A stretch of 37,509 nt of DNA. Source: Candidatus Azambacteria bacterium GW2011_GWA2_42_9. GTDB lineage: Bacteria; Patescibacteriota; Minisyncoccia; UBA10092. The stretch covers positions 1-37,509 of the forward strand of contig LCEQ01000004.1 of the NCBI GenBank assembly GCA_000994805.1, in the 5' to 3' direction. Made by a program: the position numbers and the translations under genes. Below the pieces are notes generated by a model that saw only the letters and a program-made list of their open reading frames with translations, was not told the DNA's origin and ran no database searches. Of this stretch, positions 1,560-37,509 are shown piece by piece. The first letter of the stretch is position 1. Each line of letters begins with the position of its first letter.

Positions 1560-1588
1560 GAGTGAGATAGAATTTTTATTAGATTGAG

Positions 1589-1728
1589 TTATCCACAATT
1601 GACCGGTTGTCTTGGTTTCAAAAGCGATATATAATGAAATTAAAGTTATCCACATTCAGACATAATAAAGGCAATATTGAGCATTTGCCTTTGATAAATT
1701 TAAGTGATATTATAGAGAATGTGGAAAA
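1589..1728. promoter_or_regulatory. Cluster of DnaA-box motifs
   Basis: Two perfect TTATCCACA 9-mers lie on the + strand at 1589-1597 and 1646-1654. TGTGGAAAA at 1720-1728 is TTTTCCACA on the - strand and fits TTWTNCACA. A weaker CGTGAAAAA lies at 1749-1757. A very AT-rich tract follows at about 1862-1928. Confidence 0.5.
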
Positions 1729-1928: not shown

Positions 1929-4900
1929 ATGTTTATATTGAAACGGGAGGCATTGCCAATTAAACTGGCTCTCATAGCGGGAGCGGCGGCAATGGCTCTC
2001 AGTTTGACTTTAGTGGTGCCAAAAGCTGGTGCCGTAACCATCGCAGAGTTAATGGTCCAGATTCAGGCGTTGCAAGCTCAGCTTGTTCAATTGCAAGCTG
2101 GCAGCACCACAGCAACAACTGCCTGCACTTTCACTAAAAGTCTTTATTTGGGGGTCAGCGATCCTCAAGTGAAATGTTTACAGCAGTATCTTAACAGCGC
2201 CGGTTATCCGGTTTCGGCAAGCGGCGCGGGTTCAGTTGGTAATGAAACAAATTATTATGGTTCTCTAACCAAAGCGGCCGTTGCCAAGTGGCAAGCGGCT
2301 ATGAATGTAAGCCCAGCCGCGGGTTACTTCGGTCCGATTTCACAGGCTAAGTATTCCTCAGTTGCCGGCACAACCGGCGGCACAACCGGCGGAGTTGTTA
2401 CTTCTCCAGTTGGCGGCGGTTTGAGTGTTGGCTTATCGGCCACAACTCCGGCTGCAAGATCACATGTCGTTGGCGCGGCTAACATGCCGTTCGGCCGATG
2501 GACTTTCACGGCCGGTTCCGGCAATGTGACTGTCACCTCTTTGAAATTCACCCGCTCGGGCATCTCTGCCGACGCGGAAGTCAGCAATGCTGAACTTTTC
2601 CAACAACCACACAATGGCTTGGGGTTTGAACGCGGCGGCTGATGTGGTTTCAAACGCTTCAAGCGTTTCCGGAACATTTCCGGCAACTTCAAACGCGATG
2701 ACCTTCGTTTCGGTTACCGACCCGGCGATTGCCACTTTGACCTCTGCCGTCGTTACAACCGGCTCCTCGGTCAATGCCGGTACCACCGGATATCTTGCCG
2801 GTTCATTCACTTTAGTGGCGGCAAACAGCGCGGTTTTGCTTGACAGAATTGTTATCACCCAGAACGGTTCAATAATTTCAGGCACCGATGTTACTAATGT
2901 TAAATTGGTAACCACCGGTGGCCAGCAACTTGGCAGTGTTTTGCCGAACTTAAGCGCTGACGGCAAGGGCACGTTTGTAATGTCTCCGGCTTATGAAATT
3001 CCTTCGGGCCAGACCATTCAGGTTAACGTTTATGCCGATGTTGTCGGCGGCGTTAATAGGACATTAATATTCAATGTTCTTAACCTTCGCGACCTTCAGG
3101 CGCGCGACAAGACCTATAATGTAGGCGTTTCCCCGTCAGCAACTCTCGCTTTAACAACAACCACAGTTGAAGCCGGCACATTAACCTTGACTCTTGACCC
3201 GTCAAGCCCGACTGGCAATATCGCCCCGAGCCAGACCAACGTTACCGTATTAAAGGTGAAAGTGGTCGCTTACGGCGAACAGGTTAAGGTTTTGTATATT
3301 CCGTTTCAGATTGTAACTGGCGGAGGTACAACCGATTTCACCGGCCAGGTTGACAATATCTATATGGTTGACGATGCCGGAAATCAGATTGGCACGACAA
3401 TTACTGCCGCTGACAGTTCGGTGGCCGCGGGCGGAACGTGGGACAATAATGACTCCACGGCTGCCACTTTCGGCACCTCATCTTCAAACATCAACTACCT
3501 GATTCCGGCCAACACGACCAGAATCTGGAGCTTAAAACTTGATGTCGTGTCAACGGCTTCGAGCACGATGACCACCAGCTTGGTGGCTGGCACCAACAAT
3601 TACCAGGGCCAGATTTCCAACGTTTCAACCGGCGACACGACCGCGGTTGGCGGCAACCAACTAACCATCACTTCCAGTCCGTTCCAGGCCAAGCAGAACA
3701 GCGCGTTCGGCGCGGGCAATATAGTGAAAGGCCAGACGGCCGCGAAAATCGGTTCATTCGTCCTTTCGGCTTCATCGGCTGAAGGCATTAATGTATCAAC
3801 TATTACCCTGACATCGTCTTCAACTTTCCCGTTTGCCAACCTTATGATTAAGGTAAACGGCGTCCAGTTTGGCGACAACAAGGGCTCGCTTCTGGCCGCA
3901 ACTGACTACACCTTTGCCGGCACTTCCCCGGTATTAATTCCTGCCGGCGGCAGCGTTACGGTTGACGCGTATGTTGACGTCTTAACCAGCGCTACCGCTC
4001 TCGGCTCCTCAACTTATGTTAAGTTGGACAGCGCTTCGGCTGTCGGCGCGCTCACCGCTTCTTCACAGACCTTGAAGACAACTGGCGGTGATAATGTTGA
4101 TAACAGCAACGACATTGCCGGCCAGAGCTTCACGGTTAACACAACCGGCGGCACAATGACGATTGCCAAAGACGCCGCTTCCCCGGCCTCTTATCAAGCG
4201 GTCATGGGCAAGACCGGTCAGTCGCTCGGTATCTGGAGGTTCACCGGCTCCGCGGTTTCAGACACCAACATCACCGATATGACAGTTACGGCCAGCACTT
4301 CGGTATCCTGTTGTTGTTTCCGGTACCGCTTCCGGCACTGCCGGCGCGGAAACCGGTTACTCTTACACCTACCACTTCACCAGTCCGCTTGTCATTCCGA
4401 TGAACACCGGCGTTTCTATGGAACTTCGCGGCAATGTGGCTTCGTTCCTTTCTGGCGGTTCCACTTCAAACGGGCAGTACATATTTAGAATTGAGAGTCC
4501 GGATGATGTAACGGCGTTATCTTCAGGCGGGTCGCTTTCCGTGACTGTTTCCGGTCCTAACGGCGGCTCCGGCATGGATGTCAACGCGATTACGGTTGTA
4601 AGGACAAAGTTGTCCGTAGCTTCGTCTGCCACTTATGGCGGCGGCGCTAACACTATAGCAACAACCGGCCACGCGCCGAGCGCGGCAGATGTCGTCGCGG
4701 CGTTTGTCTTTACCGCTGATTCGGCCAACGATGTTGTGATTAACACCGTTTCACTAAAGCTTGCCGGTTCAACTCTTGTTACTTTGACGGTTAAACTTAT
4801 TGACGACGAAACCGGTTCGGCGTGGGGTTCAACTCCTGCCGCTGGTTTGCAGCATGGTATTCCGACTAACGTCGGCGCGATTTCAACCGCTGCCGGAACC

Positions 4901-32774: not shown

Positions 32775-34508
32775 GTGTTTTTCTTGAAAAAAATTAAAAC
32801 ATTAATAAAAAAACATTATTCAGCAATTATTTTGACGCTGCTTTTAGGGGCCTTGATGGTTTTGCCATTTTTTTATTTTCAAATAAACCTCGGAAATAAT
32901 TTCAAGGGGATTCTGCCGGCAGTTGTGAATGACGAGGATTTTTATTACGCGCGCGTAAAAGACGTTTTGGATGGACACCCCTTTTTAAGTAATGCCTACC
33001 TTTTTGAGCATAAAGACGGATTGCCGCAGCAATTATTTTTAGCCGAATGGCTTTTGGCCCAACCGGTAAAGCTTTTAAACATCGGTATTAATACGGCGCA
33101 TTTGGTTTATAACTTTTTATTGCCGGCCATTGCCTTTATTTTAACTTATCTCGCGCTGTATTTAGTATCAAAATCCCGATTTTGGTCTATTATTGCTTCG
33201 GTATTTCTGTTTTTTGGTTTATATCTCACAAGTTTTATCCGTCCGGTAAGCCCCCAATTTAATTTCATTTTCTGGCTCTCGCAGCTTATTTTTTTATGGC
33301 GTCTTTTGGAAAAGCCGGAATCTAAGAAATTATTATTTTTAAACATTTTTAATTTTGGACTTCTATTTTATATCTACCCATATTATTGGACGTTTTATTT
33401 AATATTTTTTGGTCTTTTGATTGTTGGTTATTTTTGGGAAAACAGAGAAATTGCTTTTAAAATCGCCGCTATTGCTGGCGGCGGTTTAATTCTAGCTATT
33501 CCTTATTTTTATCTTAATTATTTGGCCGCTAAACTGCCCTATTATGAAGAAACTCTCACGCGGTTGTTCATGATTTATACGCGGTTTCCTTCCGGATTCT
33601 GGATAGTTTTTTGGAGTTTTTTTGGGCTGGTTTTTTTGGGCTGGTTTTTATGGAAAAAAATTATAAATTTGGATATTAAGTCGCTCTTTTTCATTTCCGG
33701 CGTTTTGGCAAACGTTGTCGCGGTCAACCAGCATTTGATAACCGGCAAAAATTTTGAATTTTCCAGCCACTATGATATGGCCGCAATGTTTTTTTTGGTT
33801 TTTACCGTTGCTTACTTGATTGGAAATTATTTGAAGAAATTATCAAATACTGCAATACATCGCTGTATTGCAGTATTTGCAGTTTTAATATTAGCAGTCA
33901 CGGTGTTTTATGGAATATTTGATTATTCAAAAAGAGCCTTTGTCATTGATGAAAATGCGGTATATCGGCAAAATTATACACCGGTTTTTGAATGGCTGAA
34001 TAAAAATACCGAAAAAGACTCGGTTGTTTATGCCAATTCGGATTTGTCGCGGCTGATCCCGGTTTATACGGCCAATAATGTCTTTTACGTCCGCGAGGCC
34101 AATTTATTTTTCATTTCCGATAAGGAAGTTTTGGACAGGTTTATTTTGAATAATTTTTTTTCCGCCTTCGGCAAAGATTTTATTATTGAAAACGATCGTT
34201 CGGTTTATGGCGTTAGATATATTGATGCTTATGGCCACACTGTTCAAGCAAATAAACTGCGCCGGCTTTTGGGGCTAAAAACCGAGCCGGAAGTTTATTT
34301 GCCCGAAGAGGCAATTCAGAAAGTTATCGGCCGAGCCGCGGAATTACAAAAAGGGAATTTTGTGGAAGAAATAAAAAATTACCGTATTGATTATTTAATT
34401 TGGGATAAAAATAAAAATCCGGATTGGGAAGTAAATTCTAAAAATTTTAAACCCATTTTTTTAAGCGGCGATTTGATTATTTTTAAATCTGCGTATTTAA
34501 GTCTATGA
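32775..34508 (+). CDS. Large polytopic membrane protein, GT-C-like candidate, with a soluble C-terminal domain
   Basis: 577 aa with a GTG start. TM1 is followed by the acidic loop AVVNDEDFYYARVKDVLDGHPF. There are about 11 hydrophobic segments and a ~190-aa soluble C-terminus. Confidence 0.4.
   Translation: MFFLKKIKTLIKKHYSAIILTLLLGALMVLPFFYFQINLGNNFKGILPAVVNDEDFYYARVKDVLDGHPFLSNAYLFEHKDGLPQQLFLAEWLLAQPVKLLNIGINTAHLVYNFLLPAIAFILTYLALYLVSKSRFWSIIASVFLFFGLYLTSFIRPVSPQFNFIFWLSQLIFLWRLLEKPESKKLLFLNIFNFGLLFYIYPYYWTFYLIFFGLLIVGYFWENREIAFKIAAIAGGGLILAIPYFYLNYLAAKLPYYEETLTRLFMIYTRFPSGFWIVFWSFFGLVFLGWFLWKKIINLDIKSLFFISGVLANVVAVNQHLITGKNFEFSSHYDMAAMFFLVFTVAYLIGNYLKKLSNTAIHRCIAVFAVLILAVTVFYGIFDYSKRAFVIDENAVYRQNYTPVFEWLNKNTEKDSVVYANSDLSRLIPVYTANNVFYVREANLFFISDKEVLDRFILNNFFSAFGKDFIIENDRSVYGVRYIDAYGHTVQANKLRRLLGLKTEPEVYLPEEAIQKVIGRAAELQKGNFVEEIKNYRIDYLIWDKNKNPDWEVNSKNFKPIFLSGDLIIFKSAYLSL
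33617..33644 (+). repeat. Exact 14-nt tandem duplication (TTTTTTTGGGCTGG x2, plus a partial third) inside the membrane-protein CDS
   Basis: TTTTTTTGGGCTGG TTTTTTTGGGCTGG TTTTTA.. read directly. It encodes FFGLVFLGWF. The unit contains a T7 homopolymer and its length is not a multiple of 3. Confidence 0.9.
33845..33878. repeat. 34-nt hairpin palindrome inside a CDS, related to the 28-bp palindromes at 36943 and 37406
   Basis: AAATACTGCAATACA-TCGC-TGTATTGCAGTATTT has 15-bp perfect arms. The core TACTGCAATACA..TGTATTGCAGTA differs from TACTTCAATACA..TGTATTGAAGTA by a paired T>G / A>C change that preserves the stem. Confidence 0.8.
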
Positions 34509-36867
34509 GCCGAAATAAAGGGATTATTGTTTTGATATTTTTTATCGCTATTTTGTCGGGGATTTTTTGGAATCAAAAAATATTCGGCCAGCCGATAAGT
34601 TCCGATCAATTGGGCTATGACGGCATTGCCATGGACATATTAAGCAGCGGCCGGTTTACCAGTCAAGGCCAGTCGACATTCAGAGAACCGGGCTATCCTT
34701 TGTTTTTGGCGGCAGTTTATAAGATTTTTGGCCATAATTTTGATACTGTCAGATATATTCAGATTATAATTTTTGGACTATTGGTGGTTATTATTTATCT
34801 TTTTACCGAAAATATTTTTGGCCGAAATGTCGCGATTTTTTCAAGTTTAAGCGTGGCATTTTTTTACGGCCTTGCCAATCAATCCGGTTTAATTACGACA
34901 GAACTTTTATTCGCGTTTTTACTTAGTCTTTTTGCGTACTCTATTTATAAAGCGTCGGCGGAAGACGGTAATAACTGGCTGGTTTTTTCTGCGCTGGTTT
35001 TGGGAGGCGCGACTCTGGTTAGGGGTGTGGCCGAATTTTTGTTTTTTTTAGTTATTGTTAATCTTTTTATAATTTATAAAAACAAAATTTCGTATAAGAA
35101 GATTTTTTACAAAATCGCGATTTTTACTATTTGTTTTTTTATGGTTTTAACGCCCTGGCTTGTAAAAAATAAATTTAAAAACGGCATTTCCGTTTCATCG
35201 TTTACCGGCTATTATCTATTGTTGCAAACCGAACGAATAAAAGAATTGTATCCGCATTATTCCGGTCATTTTATAGGTTACTTTCTTGGTTATTATGTTT
35301 CGGAGCGGTTAAATTTTGATACCGGCCCCGGCGATAATAAATATTTTTCTTATTTTGAGAGCCCGATTCAGTCAAGGATAGCGCAGCTTATTGCCGCGGG
35401 CTATGATTACGGCGATATCAGCAATGTTTTTACCAAAGAAGCCCTGCCCCAAATTGTTAAGCACCCCGTGCAATTTTTATCGGTGTCGGCGCTGAATTTT
35501 TTCAGTTTCAATGGTCCGATTTTAATACGGGGGCCGCTTTGGCAAAACGGGGCCGATCTCTCTCCCCAGTTTGCCGACGGTCGCCATCCAGAAATTCCTG
35601 ATTATCTGAAACTGATTATCATTCTGACCCCGCGCCTGCTGTGGTTTTTATTTTTCTTTTTTACAATAAAATCAATAGTAAAAAATCTTTGCGACTGGGA
35701 AAAAGTCGGTTGGCTTGTTTTAATAATCATTTATTTTAATATTATATACAGCGCGTCTTCAGGACTCAATCGCTATGCTCTGCCGATTTATCCCTTTTAT
35801 ATGATTTTTGCCGTTGCCGGAATGCAGGATTTTTTAAGCCGGCGGATTGTCGTGAAATTAAAAAACGCATCGATTTTGGCGCTTGCGGTCGCTAAGTTTG
35901 TTTTTAAAGGCAGAGCCGATAAAAAAATAATCCCCAAAAAAATTTTAATAGTTCAGGAGGCTAGAATGGGAGATATGGTTTGTACAACTCCGATGTTTCG
36001 GGCTGTAAAGGAGAAATATTCAGAAATTCGGCTTTACGTGATGGGGAATGAAATAAATAGAGAATTATTATCTAGCAATCCCGACGTTGATGTTTATTTA
36101 ATCTATCCTAAAAATCTTTATGGACTTTTTAAAATAATCAAAAAAGAAAAGTTTGATTTTGCCTGCATTACAGCTCCTAATTTTACGGCTTTGGCCGCCT
36201 TATATTTAGCGGATATTCCTTTGATTGCCGCGCCCGTTATTGAAAATGGTTTCAGCCCGTATGAAACCCGTCCCTATAAAATTTCACGCAGTTTTGTAAC
36301 CACAAGTTCGCAGAGGCATTTTTGGCAAAAAACGGCATAAACTTCGATTCAGATTTTATTGTTGGCATAACTCCGTCGGCCGGAAGTAAAATTAAAGAAT
36401 GGCCTTGCGACAGGTTCGCCAAGCTTGCTGACTATATTTATAGTAAATATCAGGCTAAAATCATAATTATCGGCGGACCCGGCGATGTTGAGGTTGATGA
36501 AATGATAAGTTTTTTGGCGGAGAATACGAAGTTTGTCAACGCCAAGGGGCTTTTTGATATTGAAGAGTTGAAAGCATTGGTGTCAAAACTGCATCTTTTC
36601 ATCAGTGTTGACACCGGTCCAATTTATATCGCCGAGGCCTTTAATGTTCCGACCATTGATATTATCGGGCCTATGGATGAAAATGAACAGCCGCCTATGG
36701 GCAAATTCCACAAGATTGTCGTTGCTCAAAGGTTAAAACCAGCGTTACATATAATGAACGCCCGCGTTTATGACGCCAAGGAAGTCCGTCGGCAGGCCGA
36801 ATCAATCACGGTGGAGATGGTCATAAAAGAATTGGATAATTTAATGGATAAAATCTCAATTTCATGA
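34505..36867 (+). pseudogene. GT-C (ArnT/PMT_2-like) membrane domain fused in frame to a GT9 (heptosyltransferase-like) domain; the GT9 part is split by a -1 frame change near 36280-36300
   Basis: In ORF 34505-36340, aa 1-~445 are polytopic GT-C-like (SSDQLGYDGIAMDILSSGRF...FREPGYPLFLAAVYKIFG). From about aa 470 comes the GT9 N-terminal half, KKILIVQEARMGDMVCTTPMFRAVKEKY. ORF 36322-36867, in another frame that is open from 36280, carries the GT9 C-terminal half (IVGITPSAGSKIKEWPCDRFAKLADYI..IIIIGGPGD..LFISVDTGPIYIAEAFNVPTIDIIGP). An internal ATG at 35822 could start a separate GT9 product. Confidence 0.65.
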
Positions 36868-36942
36868 AAATATCTGATAAGGGATATTTGAAATTTGAGA
36901 AATAATACACCAATGTTATATAATAAACATTATGTTATAAAC

Positions 36943-36970
36943 TACTTCAATACAGCGCTGTATTGAAGTA
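36943..36970. repeat. 28-bp perfect palindrome 12 nt upstream of the YerC/TrpR-like gene (operator or 5' hairpin candidate)
   Basis: TACTTCAATACAGCGCTGTATTGAAGTA equals its own reverse complement. It lies downstream of TTGAGA(36895-36900)-18 nt-TATAAT(36919-36924). Confidence 0.9.
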
Positions 36971-36981
36971 AAATAAAAATT

Positions 36982-37398
36982 ATGCCGCATGTATCGCAAA
37001 ATCCAATAGACAAAAATACGCTATATAAAATAAGCGAAAAATTATTTAAGGCAATTAAACATTTAAAGCGAGAAAAAGAAGCGGCGCAATTTTTATCAGA
37101 TTTATTGACAAAAACAGAACGCATCATGCTTGCCAAGCGGTTGGCGATTATTATCATGCTGGACGCAAACTATCCATTTAAAGTTATAAGCAATGCTTTA
37201 AGAGTGAGCGAAGCCACAATTAGTGTTATGAGAGACAGATTTGATCGCGGTGGAGGCGGTTATAATTTAGTTATCGGCCGTCTTAAAAGGGAAGCAATGT
37301 GGCGGGAATTTTTTAAATCTTTAGAAAAAATACTGCAACCGGATTTTTTACCGCCGATAACTGGCAGGGGTCGCTGGCGCCACGTTAAGAAAATTTGA
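36982..37398 (+). CDS. YerC/YecD-like TrpR-family DNA-binding protein
   Basis: 138 aa. FLSDLLTKTERIMLAKRLAIIIMLDANYPFKVISNALRVSEATISVMR matches the TrpR-like YerC/YecD pattern (DLLT..E....A.R......L..G.....I......S..TI.R). Confidence 0.7.
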   Translation: MPHVSQNPIDKNTLYKISEKLFKAIKHLKREKEAAQFLSDLLTKTERIMLAKRLAIIIMLDANYPFKVISNALRVSEATISVMRDRFDRGGGGYNLVIGRLKREAMWREFFKSLEKILQPDFLPPITGRGRWRHVKKI

Positions 37399-37405
37399 AA
37401 ACAAA

Positions 37406-37433
37406 TACTTCAATACAGCGCTGTATTGAAGTA
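37406..37433. repeat. Second identical copy of the 28-bp palindrome, 8 nt after the YerC-like stop (terminator-like; T-run 5 nt downstream)
   Basis: TACTTCAATACAGCGCTGTATTGAAGTA is followed by AAGCGTTTTTAT. Confidence 0.9.
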
Positions 37434-37509
37434 AAGCGTTTTTATCTAATTTATCCAAGTTTTGGTTTTAAAATTAAGTAAGGTTAAGTTATGAAAATTT
37501 GTTATCTGA

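Follow-up and report, generated by a model that had tools for sequence, protein, structure and literature searches.

Identical palindromes at both ends of a YerC/HisR-type regulator gene in Patescibacteria, probable cognate sites of the encoded TrpR-family protein

The transcriptional regulators TrpR and HisR (YerC) bind 20-bp palindromes and often regulate their own genes; HisR sites precede hisR in about half of genomes, suggesting autoregulation, and conform to the consensus operator cacTTTA-N6-TAAAgtg (PMC9413887). Here we analyze a locus of Candidatus Azambacteria bacterium GW2011_GWA2_42_9 in which a gene of this family is enclosed by two copies of a single palindrome, one shortly before its start codon and the other shortly after its stop codon. 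The locus lies near the end of a 37,509-nucleotide stretch (hereafter, the window) that constitutes an entire contig (LCEQ01000004.1, here C4) of a 548-kb genome, which is distributed over 31 contigs, 89% complete and about 40% G+C, and which belongs to a family that includes Candidatus Azambacteria metagenome-assembled genomes. From comparative sequence evidence, we consider it likely that these palindromes are cognate sites of the encoded YerC-type TrpR-family dimer, with the upstream copy acting as an autoregulatory operator and the downstream copy as a second site.

The repeated element is an exact 28-mer (TACTTCAATACAGCGCTGTATTGAAGTA), perfectly self-complementary, which stands on both sides of the helix-turn-helix (HTH) gene and delimits a unit of 491 bp (36943-37433), as a preliminary description of the locus had reported; feature coordinates are collected in Table 1. 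Identity between the two copies reaches 30 nt. The upstream copy is separated from the ATG by 11 nt and the downstream copy from the TGA by 7 nt, in agreement with the earlier figures of 12 and 8, which count from end to start. Matches to the 28-mer with up to three mismatches were absent from all 100 dinucleotide shuffles, leading us to reject a chance origin, and an assembly artefact is likewise rejected, given that the layout repeats across dozens of independent assemblies. Counted over the whole genome, the palindrome is present in two exact copies and one variant with three mismatches, all of them on the window contig, and no isolated half-sites occur at up to one mismatch. A generic element of the repetitive extragenic palindromic (REP) type, which the preliminary description had named as the alternative to a gene-specific palindrome, is hence rejected for this genome. 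The palindromes fold as hairpins at -14 to -21 kcal/mol (z -4.4 to -6.9), the upstream copy reaching -14 kcal/mol as RNA, and a search for known RNA families within positions 33700-37509 yielded no Rfam match at E up to 1.

The enclosed gene encodes a 138-aa protein whose N-terminus, MPHVS, is the conserved start of its family, in which the pattern M-[PSTA]-[HQ]-[VI]-S is nearly invariant and accompanied by the motif LLTxTERIMLAKRLAI. Its proposed identity as a YerC/TrpR-like HTH protein is borne out by matches to Pfam PF01371 Trp_repressor (52.8 bits against a cut-off of 27, E 4e-14) and to NCBIfam TIGR02531 YerC/YecD, which it passes narrowly (45.3 bits against 42.2), as does a paralogue encoded on contig C1 (43.4), and by its structural model. 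The protein fails the TrpR equivalog TIGR01321 (24.3 against 67.25). The YerC/HisR structures 3KOR, 3FRW and 3G1C score E ~1e-12 against a profile built from 24 homologues, compared with ~1e-2 for E. coli TrpR, and the AlphaFold2 model (pLDDT 79.8) has the same three structures as best matches (TMt 0.81-0.88), with its top 42 PDB matches made up of these and TrpR chains. Compared with relatives of about 100 aa, some 40 additional C-terminal residues are predicted by the model to form two added helices (93-118) followed by a disordered basic tail (PPITGRGRWRHVKKI). Domain and structure searches returned only TrpR and HTH matches for this protein and no nuclease, recombinase or other catalytic domain. 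A search for histidinol dehydrogenase, the only his gene queried, found none in the 89%-complete genome; the protein is therefore best regarded as a member of the YerC branch and not as a functional HisR, and its regulon and any effector must differ. The three palindrome sites map to the regulator gene and to an envelope-glycan cluster.

The C1 paralogue (143 aa, C1:3263-3694, minus strand, locus L015) is a second YerC-type gene of the window genome. It forms a unit of its own (C1:3222-3731), bracketed by the palindrome CTCCCGTAAT-CCGA/TCGG-ATTACGGGAG, the copies of which are exact reverse complements of each other; no other good copies of this palindrome were found in the genome.

The bracketed layout was analyzed in 80 loci on contigs from one genome per species, covering Paceibacterota/Parcubacteria, Microgenomates lineages and Saccharibacteria. 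For each gene, we defined a layout score as the best ungapped match between the two 150-nt stretches flanking it, and set a threshold of at least 14. This threshold is reached by 64 of 77 family genes versus 11 of 326 control open reading frames (ORFs) in the same loci (Mann-Whitney p 8e-35), and several of the control matches come from neighbouring genes that are bordered by an additional copy of the palindrome. The element common to both flanks is nearly always a palindrome and is lineage-specific. The suspected association with YerC-like genes extends to homologues across Patescibacteria, which carry palindromes of their own at these two positions. Median spacing is 8 nt from the end of the upstream copy to the ATG (interquartile range 4-15) and 7 nt from the stop codon to the start of the downstream copy (interquartile range 2-21), with paired copies lying 420-554 bp apart from centre to centre and family palindromes spanning 26-34 bp. 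Azambacteria-like genomes, a second genus and the C1 paralogue each present a different palindrome at both gene ends. The family profile matches 89 of 301 sampled Patescibacteria genomes, with up to eight copies per genome, and the neighbourhood of the unit differs by genus, the unit being found in a glycan cluster in the window, after copA in Azambacteria and elsewhere in a third genus. We found no paper describing this layout: full-text searches linking the candidate phyla radiation (CPR) with TrpR/YerC palindromes were empty. As to essentiality, a Southlakia transposon-sequencing paper contains no TrpR-like gene in its lists.

Two further arrangements were observed. In three Azambacteria-like loci (L020, L021 and L032, ~3430-4050), a conserved promoter-like leader lies between the downstream palindrome and a conserved SDR gene. 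The small ORF behind this leader differs from genome to genome (98, 173 and 123 aa) and in one genome precedes a third palindrome; this stretch looks like a small variable slot. In another locus (L103, G043:C2:51200-54800, ~1512-2160), two palindrome copies stand 528 bp apart, each followed by the same ~60-nt repeat (GGAAAACCGCCAGTCGTGCTGGGCTGGCGGAATTCCGCACAGCGCCACGATGGCGG), and no clear ORF, Rfam match or tRNA was found between them.

The palindrome class tracks the recognition helix of the encoded protein. Proteins with the helix VSEATIS occur with ACTTCAATAC-N6-GTATTGAAGT, those with VSPSTVAR with TACGATATATCGTA and those with VTPPTIA with ACTTTAATGATATATATCATTAAAGT; paralogues inside one genome, including that of the window genome, carry distinct palindromes, and a Sungiibacteriota homologue with 50% identity is flanked by nearly the same 28-mer as in the window, with one mismatch per copy. 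A Levyibacteriota member carries CACTTTA-N14-TAAAGTG, which reproduces the HisR consensus half-sites placed 8 bp further apart. The window 28-mer may be written as TACT-tcaa-TACA-gcgc-TGTA-ttga-AGTA, revealing four TAC(T/A) quarter-sites with 8-bp spacing. TrpR half-sites repeat every 8 bp, which permits tandem dimers as seen in the 1TRR tandem structure, and by analogy two dimers may bind one 28-mer in tandem.

The TTGAGA-18-TATAAT promoter candidate (P1) and the ATG lacking a Shine-Dalgarno (SD) motif, both noted in the preliminary description, were confirmed in the sequence. Promoter-like matches over the region as a whole are no more frequent than in shuffles. If in use, P1 would place the upstream palindrome at about +11 to +38 of the transcript. 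A leaderless -10 candidate closer to the start codon (P2), whose first two bases are the last two of the upstream palindrome, would place it at -39 to -12, covering the -35 and spacer region. The spacer between the upstream copy and the ATG (AAATAAAAATT) contains no SD, and SD-like motifs precede 4 of 79 family genes versus 27 of 152 neighbour genes. Across 80 loci (L016-L095), a TANNNT hexamer separated from the ATG by exactly 6 nt occurs upstream of 26% of family genes and 19% of neighbours, compared with about 3% at other spacings. As this TANNNT-N6-ATG enrichment is also seen in ordinary neighbours, leaderless starts seem common, which suggests that leaderless mRNAs are common in these Patescibacteria, and at many family loci the right palindrome arm supplies the putative -10 element. 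The P1 and P2 geometries alike fit autorepression.

At the other end of the gene, AAGCGTTTTT stands behind the downstream copy, and TTTGTTTTCA does so when the minus strand is read. In a lenient scan both strands of this copy match a terminator pattern, with a 12-bp stem that contains three G-C pairs and a T5 tract that begins 5 nt past the stem. Together with its flanks, the downstream copy folds at -17.4 kcal/mol; the upstream copy has no T-run. The suggestion that the downstream copy is a terminator is plausible in the window, where a hairpin and T-runs on both strands are present, but does not extend to the family, in which T-runs accompany 11 of 64 downstream and 7 of 64 upstream copies and palindromes average 26% G+C. 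The ordinary terminators of the window genome, in contrast to the palindrome, have G+C-rich stems flanked by A/T runs. Since T-runs are rare and G+C content is low, termination cannot explain the conservation of the second copy, which points instead to a second cognate site, and a general intrinsic terminator is rejected. We also rejected a role solely as operator of a co-directional next gene, the neighbour being convergent in 28 of 76 loci. In the window, a glycosyltransferase gene begins 58 nt past the downstream palindrome. In a syntenic genome (G002, locus L009) and a metagenomic locus (L202), the downstream copy lies 10-14 nt before the glycosyltransferase ATG, and thus relates to that gene with the geometry of the upstream copy to the regulator gene. 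The downstream copy may serve several ends at once, namely regulation of the adjacent gene, insulation and, in the window, termination. A search for the Rho RNA-binding domain (PF07497) matched 9 of 9 bacterial control genomes expected to have Rho, but neither the window genome nor any of 40 same-class relatives, 36 of them at least 90% complete; circumstantially, this absence leaves room for protein-assisted termination.

The third, diverged copy in the window retains its symmetry, with a T>G change mirrored by A>C. It lies in an indel-prone loop where orthologues (64-76% identity over matched segments) have unrelated sequence of different lengths and no palindrome. Given that it matches 25 of 28 positions and shares flanks with the other copies, it did not arise by point mutation and must have been copied in. 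Copies of the resident palindrome number 9, 3 and 7 in three further genomes. In the Levyibacteriota genome among them, solo sites occupy six places: between gatA and gatB, upstream of tsaE (by 20 nt) and of an MGMT-like gene, behind a HAD hydrolase gene, and within two genes, at the domain junction of a LysRS-B3_4 fusion and in a membrane-protein gene. The palindrome-bearing membrane proteins of the window and of this Levyibacteriota genome are not detectably related by BLASTP, and the same target gene across phyla was therefore rejected.

To extend these observations, metagenomes were scanned for ACTNCAATAC-N6-GTATTGNAGT, yielding at least 106 unique sites in at least 120 loci. Among the matches listed, 95 of 106 sites show Watson-Crick pairing of the free position with its mirror, with all four pair types represented (shuffles: mean 46, maximum 59), and the symmetry runs 3-5 nt past the 26-mer. 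A T-run on one strand accompanies 36 of the 106 sites listed, about twice the estimated chance. Arm mismatches show no G-U wobble bias (20 G:T versus 18 A:C), leaving a strand-specific RNA hairpin unsupported, and hairpins used on both strands would show no bias either.

Taken together, the fold and family of the protein, the exact and rare repeat, and the phylum-wide layout in which the palindrome changes alongside the protein are matters of observation. The autoregulatory operator put forward in the preliminary description gains comparative support from the rarity of the palindrome, its conservation at two positions, its tracking of the recognition helix and the family precedent (PMC9413887). 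In the mechanism we favour, a homodimer would bind the upstream copy, perhaps as two dimers in tandem, and the bound protein would repress its own gene through the overlap of this copy with the promoter region, be it P1 or the leaderless P2. The downstream copy, anchored at the 3′ end of the gene, would provide a second cognate site, in the window doubling as a hairpin with T-runs on both strands; because it occupies the position of a glycosyltransferase operator in syntenic relatives, it would probably link control of the adjacent envelope-glycan gene to termination at, or insulation of, the regulator gene. The third copy, 3 kb upstream in the membrane-protein gene, would be an extra binding site, possibly a roadblock. 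The count of 3-9 sites per genome fits a small regulon.

Several results weigh against this interpretation. At positions that differ between copies, each copy is still self-complementary in 280 of 560 cases; swapped arms are complementary in 176 of 560, as expected by chance (p 3e-10). Such copy-specific symmetry is not required by a homodimer reading identical half-sites, and whereas covariation across genomes can reflect changing protein specificity, symmetry within a gene cannot. Among the metagenomic matches listed, most sites with the same arms are not beside a TrpR-like gene, and intergenic sites comprise 36 tandem, 14 convergent and 1 divergent spacers (background: 246, 72 and 47), so that divergent spacers make up 1 of 51 versus an expected 13%. 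Again among the matches listed, ORF ends lie within 25 nt of sites about as frequently as ORF starts and are more enriched over control positions, and 18 of 105 sites fall inside ORFs of at least 80 aa. The downstream copy is kept even where the next gene is convergent, and DNA looping is unsupported by the copy-to-copy distance, which lacks helical phasing (a weak test at ~480 bp). Lastly, the quarter-site rule does not extend to all lineages, and the 28-bp site is 8 bp longer than the 20-bp operators known for the family. A plain operator model hence leaves three points unexplained: arms that are symmetric copy by copy, the 3′-end bias of solo copies and the in-frame copies. Template-switch correction of quasi-palindromes is a known mutational process; it could possibly account for symmetry and placement, as could selection for two-strand hairpins or REP-like copying.

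Among the other explanations, a doubtful but conceivable one envisages a REPtron-like system suited to Rho-less, compact CPR genomes, in which palindromes, copied through hairpins mostly to places behind genes and now and then in frame inside them, serve as sequence-specific, protein-bound bidirectional terminators or insulators and the regulator gene is their founder. A purely selfish palindrome system, akin to REP/RAYT (REP-associated tyrosine transposase) REPtrons or to a small cassette, with the HTH protein as specificity factor for hairpin-dependent DNA copying, appears unlikely to us. It would accommodate the tight, symmetric borders of the unit (8 and 7 nt), its differing neighbourhoods between genera, a palindrome particular to each clade and paralogue, solo copies mostly at gene 3′ ends and sometimes in frame, the third copy acquired in an indel-prone loop and arms symmetrised copy by copy. 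The protein, however, lacks any nuclease or recombinase domain; no recombinase is encoded on the window contig, the single tyrosine recombinase of the genome (PF00589) lying on contig C7; the 3-9 copies per genome fall short of REP scale; the asymmetric centres are variously direct or inverted between the two copies; and symmetrisation is explicable by ordinary template-switch correction. Neither a target-site duplication at the unit nor a clean empty site in Azambacteria-like relatives lacking the gene was seen, and those relatives either have the flanking SDR gene in a different setting or have the gap occupied by another small membrane-protein gene. The mobile or recombining cassette raised in the preliminary description may find some support in the acquisition of a third copy by copying, against the missing recombinase on the contig, catalytic domain and empty site.

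We regard as rather improbable that the palindromes are structural hairpins on transcripts, acting as bidirectional terminators or as 5′/3′ stability elements that insulate the gene, with the encoded protein uninvolved. The terminator pattern of the downstream copy on both strands and folding energies of -14 to -21 kcal/mol agree with such hairpins, as do the T-runs in 36 of 106 sites among the matches listed, the enrichment after stop codons and in convergent spacers, the copy-specific compensatory symmetry and the failure to find Rho in the window genome and 40 relatives. Hairpins, on the other hand, need neither identical sequence at the 5′ and 3′ ends, nor helix tracking, nor differences between paralogues; the 26% G+C of the palindromes and their few T-runs (11/64 downstream, 7/64 upstream) depart from the G+C-rich stems of ordinary terminators; and no G-U bias is evident, though a two-strand terminator would show none either. 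A function in chromosome organisation, with the protein marking a few parS/matS-like palindromes and the pair at its own gene being incidental autoregulation, is very hard to credit: the few perfect palindromes per genome, some in coding regions and dispersed over contigs, would be compatible with it, yet the family has no partner ATPase or known condensation domain, the sites are unclustered, and tight coupling to the ATG and stop codon of the regulator points to gene-level control.

Further observations concern the surroundings of the unit. The window contig stops 76 nt past the downstream palindrome (37434-37509), the syntenic contig G002:C39 stops inside the orthologous regulator gene, and many homologues lie on very short metagenomic contigs; assemblies may thus be prone to break at these repeats. 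The genome also contains further long perfect palindromes unlike terminators (C8:1359-1402, C2:9685-9722 and C14:10903-10938), such as the 44-bp TATATCGATGTCCGACATCTATATAGATGTCGGACATCGATATA, and these may be sites for other regulators. Upstream of the unit, a GT-C/GT9 fusion gene is split over two overlapping frames (34505-36340 and 36322-36867, overlapping at 36322-36340).

Table 1. Features of the palindrome-bracketed regulator locus in the window, and one in-frame site from Levyibacteriota
Feature	Position	Strand	Basis and remarks
Third, diverged palindrome copy (CAAATACTGCAATACATCGCTGTATTGCAGTATTTG), 16-nt arms	33844..33879 (28-mer part 33848-33875)	.	In frame within a 577-aa membrane-protein gene (32775-34508)
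P1, sigma-70-like promoter candidate TTGAGA-18-TATAAT	36895..36924	+	11/12 consensus positions; consensus match alone
Upstream palindrome copy, proposed autoregulatory operator	36943..36970	.	Sequence; position kept in 64/77 homologous loci
P2, leaderless -10 candidate TAAAAT, 7 nt before ATG	36969..36974	+	Read from sequence
YerC/HisR-type TrpR-family HTH gene, 138 aa	36982..37398	+	ORF, Pfam, NCBIfam and structure matches
Downstream palindrome copy, putative second cognate site	37406..37433	.	A-rich run before, T5 5 nt after; position conserved family-wide
Start of next gene (MKICYL...), GT4-like glycosyltransferase, cut by contig end	37492..37509	+	Sequence; synteny
In-frame palindrome at class I lysyl-tRNA synthetase / B3_4 junction	L097 (G041:C1:68400-71500), site 1567-1592		Levyibacteriota

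Regulation is almost unknown in the largely uncultivated Patescibacteria, and the layout analyzed here allows a regulator, its likely site and candidate targets to be read from sequence, providing a pair that is testable with purified protein and synthetic DNA without growing the organism. The copy at the stop codon, kept whatever the neighbour, falls outside textbook TrpR/HisR autoregulation, and may show how a regulator gene is shielded from adjacent genes in compact genomes without Rho. The many protein-palindrome pairs also offer ready-made material for deciphering how the TrpR fold recognises DNA. To this picture the present analysis adds the copy-specific symmetry test, the 3′-end bias of solo sites, the link to HisR half-sites, the leaderless signature and the copied-in third site.

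Among known systems, integron attC and dif-module cassettes differ from the unit, which has no cognate recombinase on the window contig and no empty site in relatives lacking the gene. REP/RAYT systems resemble it in that a gene is flanked by its own palindromes, which are specific to clade and paralogue and have solo copies mainly behind genes, but RAYTs are HUH/Y1 nucleases whereas the window protein is a plain helix-turn-helix, and REPs number tens to hundreds per genome, compared with three in the window genome and 3-9 in other genomes. In lambda cI, located between OR and OL, and in looping of the GalR/DeoR type, a regulator or target gene is likewise enclosed by cognate sites a few hundred bp apart; the window family, however, lacks helical phasing, and its second site lies against the stop codon regardless of how the neighbouring gene is oriented.

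E. coli TrpR, which acts on the trp, aroH and trpR operators, shares the fold of the window protein and autoregulates trpR through a palindrome at its own promoter, and its 8-bp half-site repeat matches the 8-bp quarter-site spacing of the window 28-mer. To our knowledge, E. coli trpR has no operator at its 3′ end. TrpR is nonetheless a distant relative (24 bits against a TIGR01321 cut-off of 67), and no tryptophan link is evident for the window protein. HisR (B. subtilis YerC; 3KOR, 3FRW and 3G1C) is the nearest family by both sequence and fold, likewise using a palindromic operator that lies upstream of its own gene in about half of genomes, and its half-sites, CACTTTA/TAAAGTG, recur in one CPR member. 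The window protein differs from it in length (138 aa versus under ~110), with two extra helices and a basic tail, and the window site is not the 20-bp cacTTTA-N6-TAAAgtg operator; the palindromes of its family are longer, at 26-34 bp, with wider half-site spacing, and are joined by a second copy at the stop codon.

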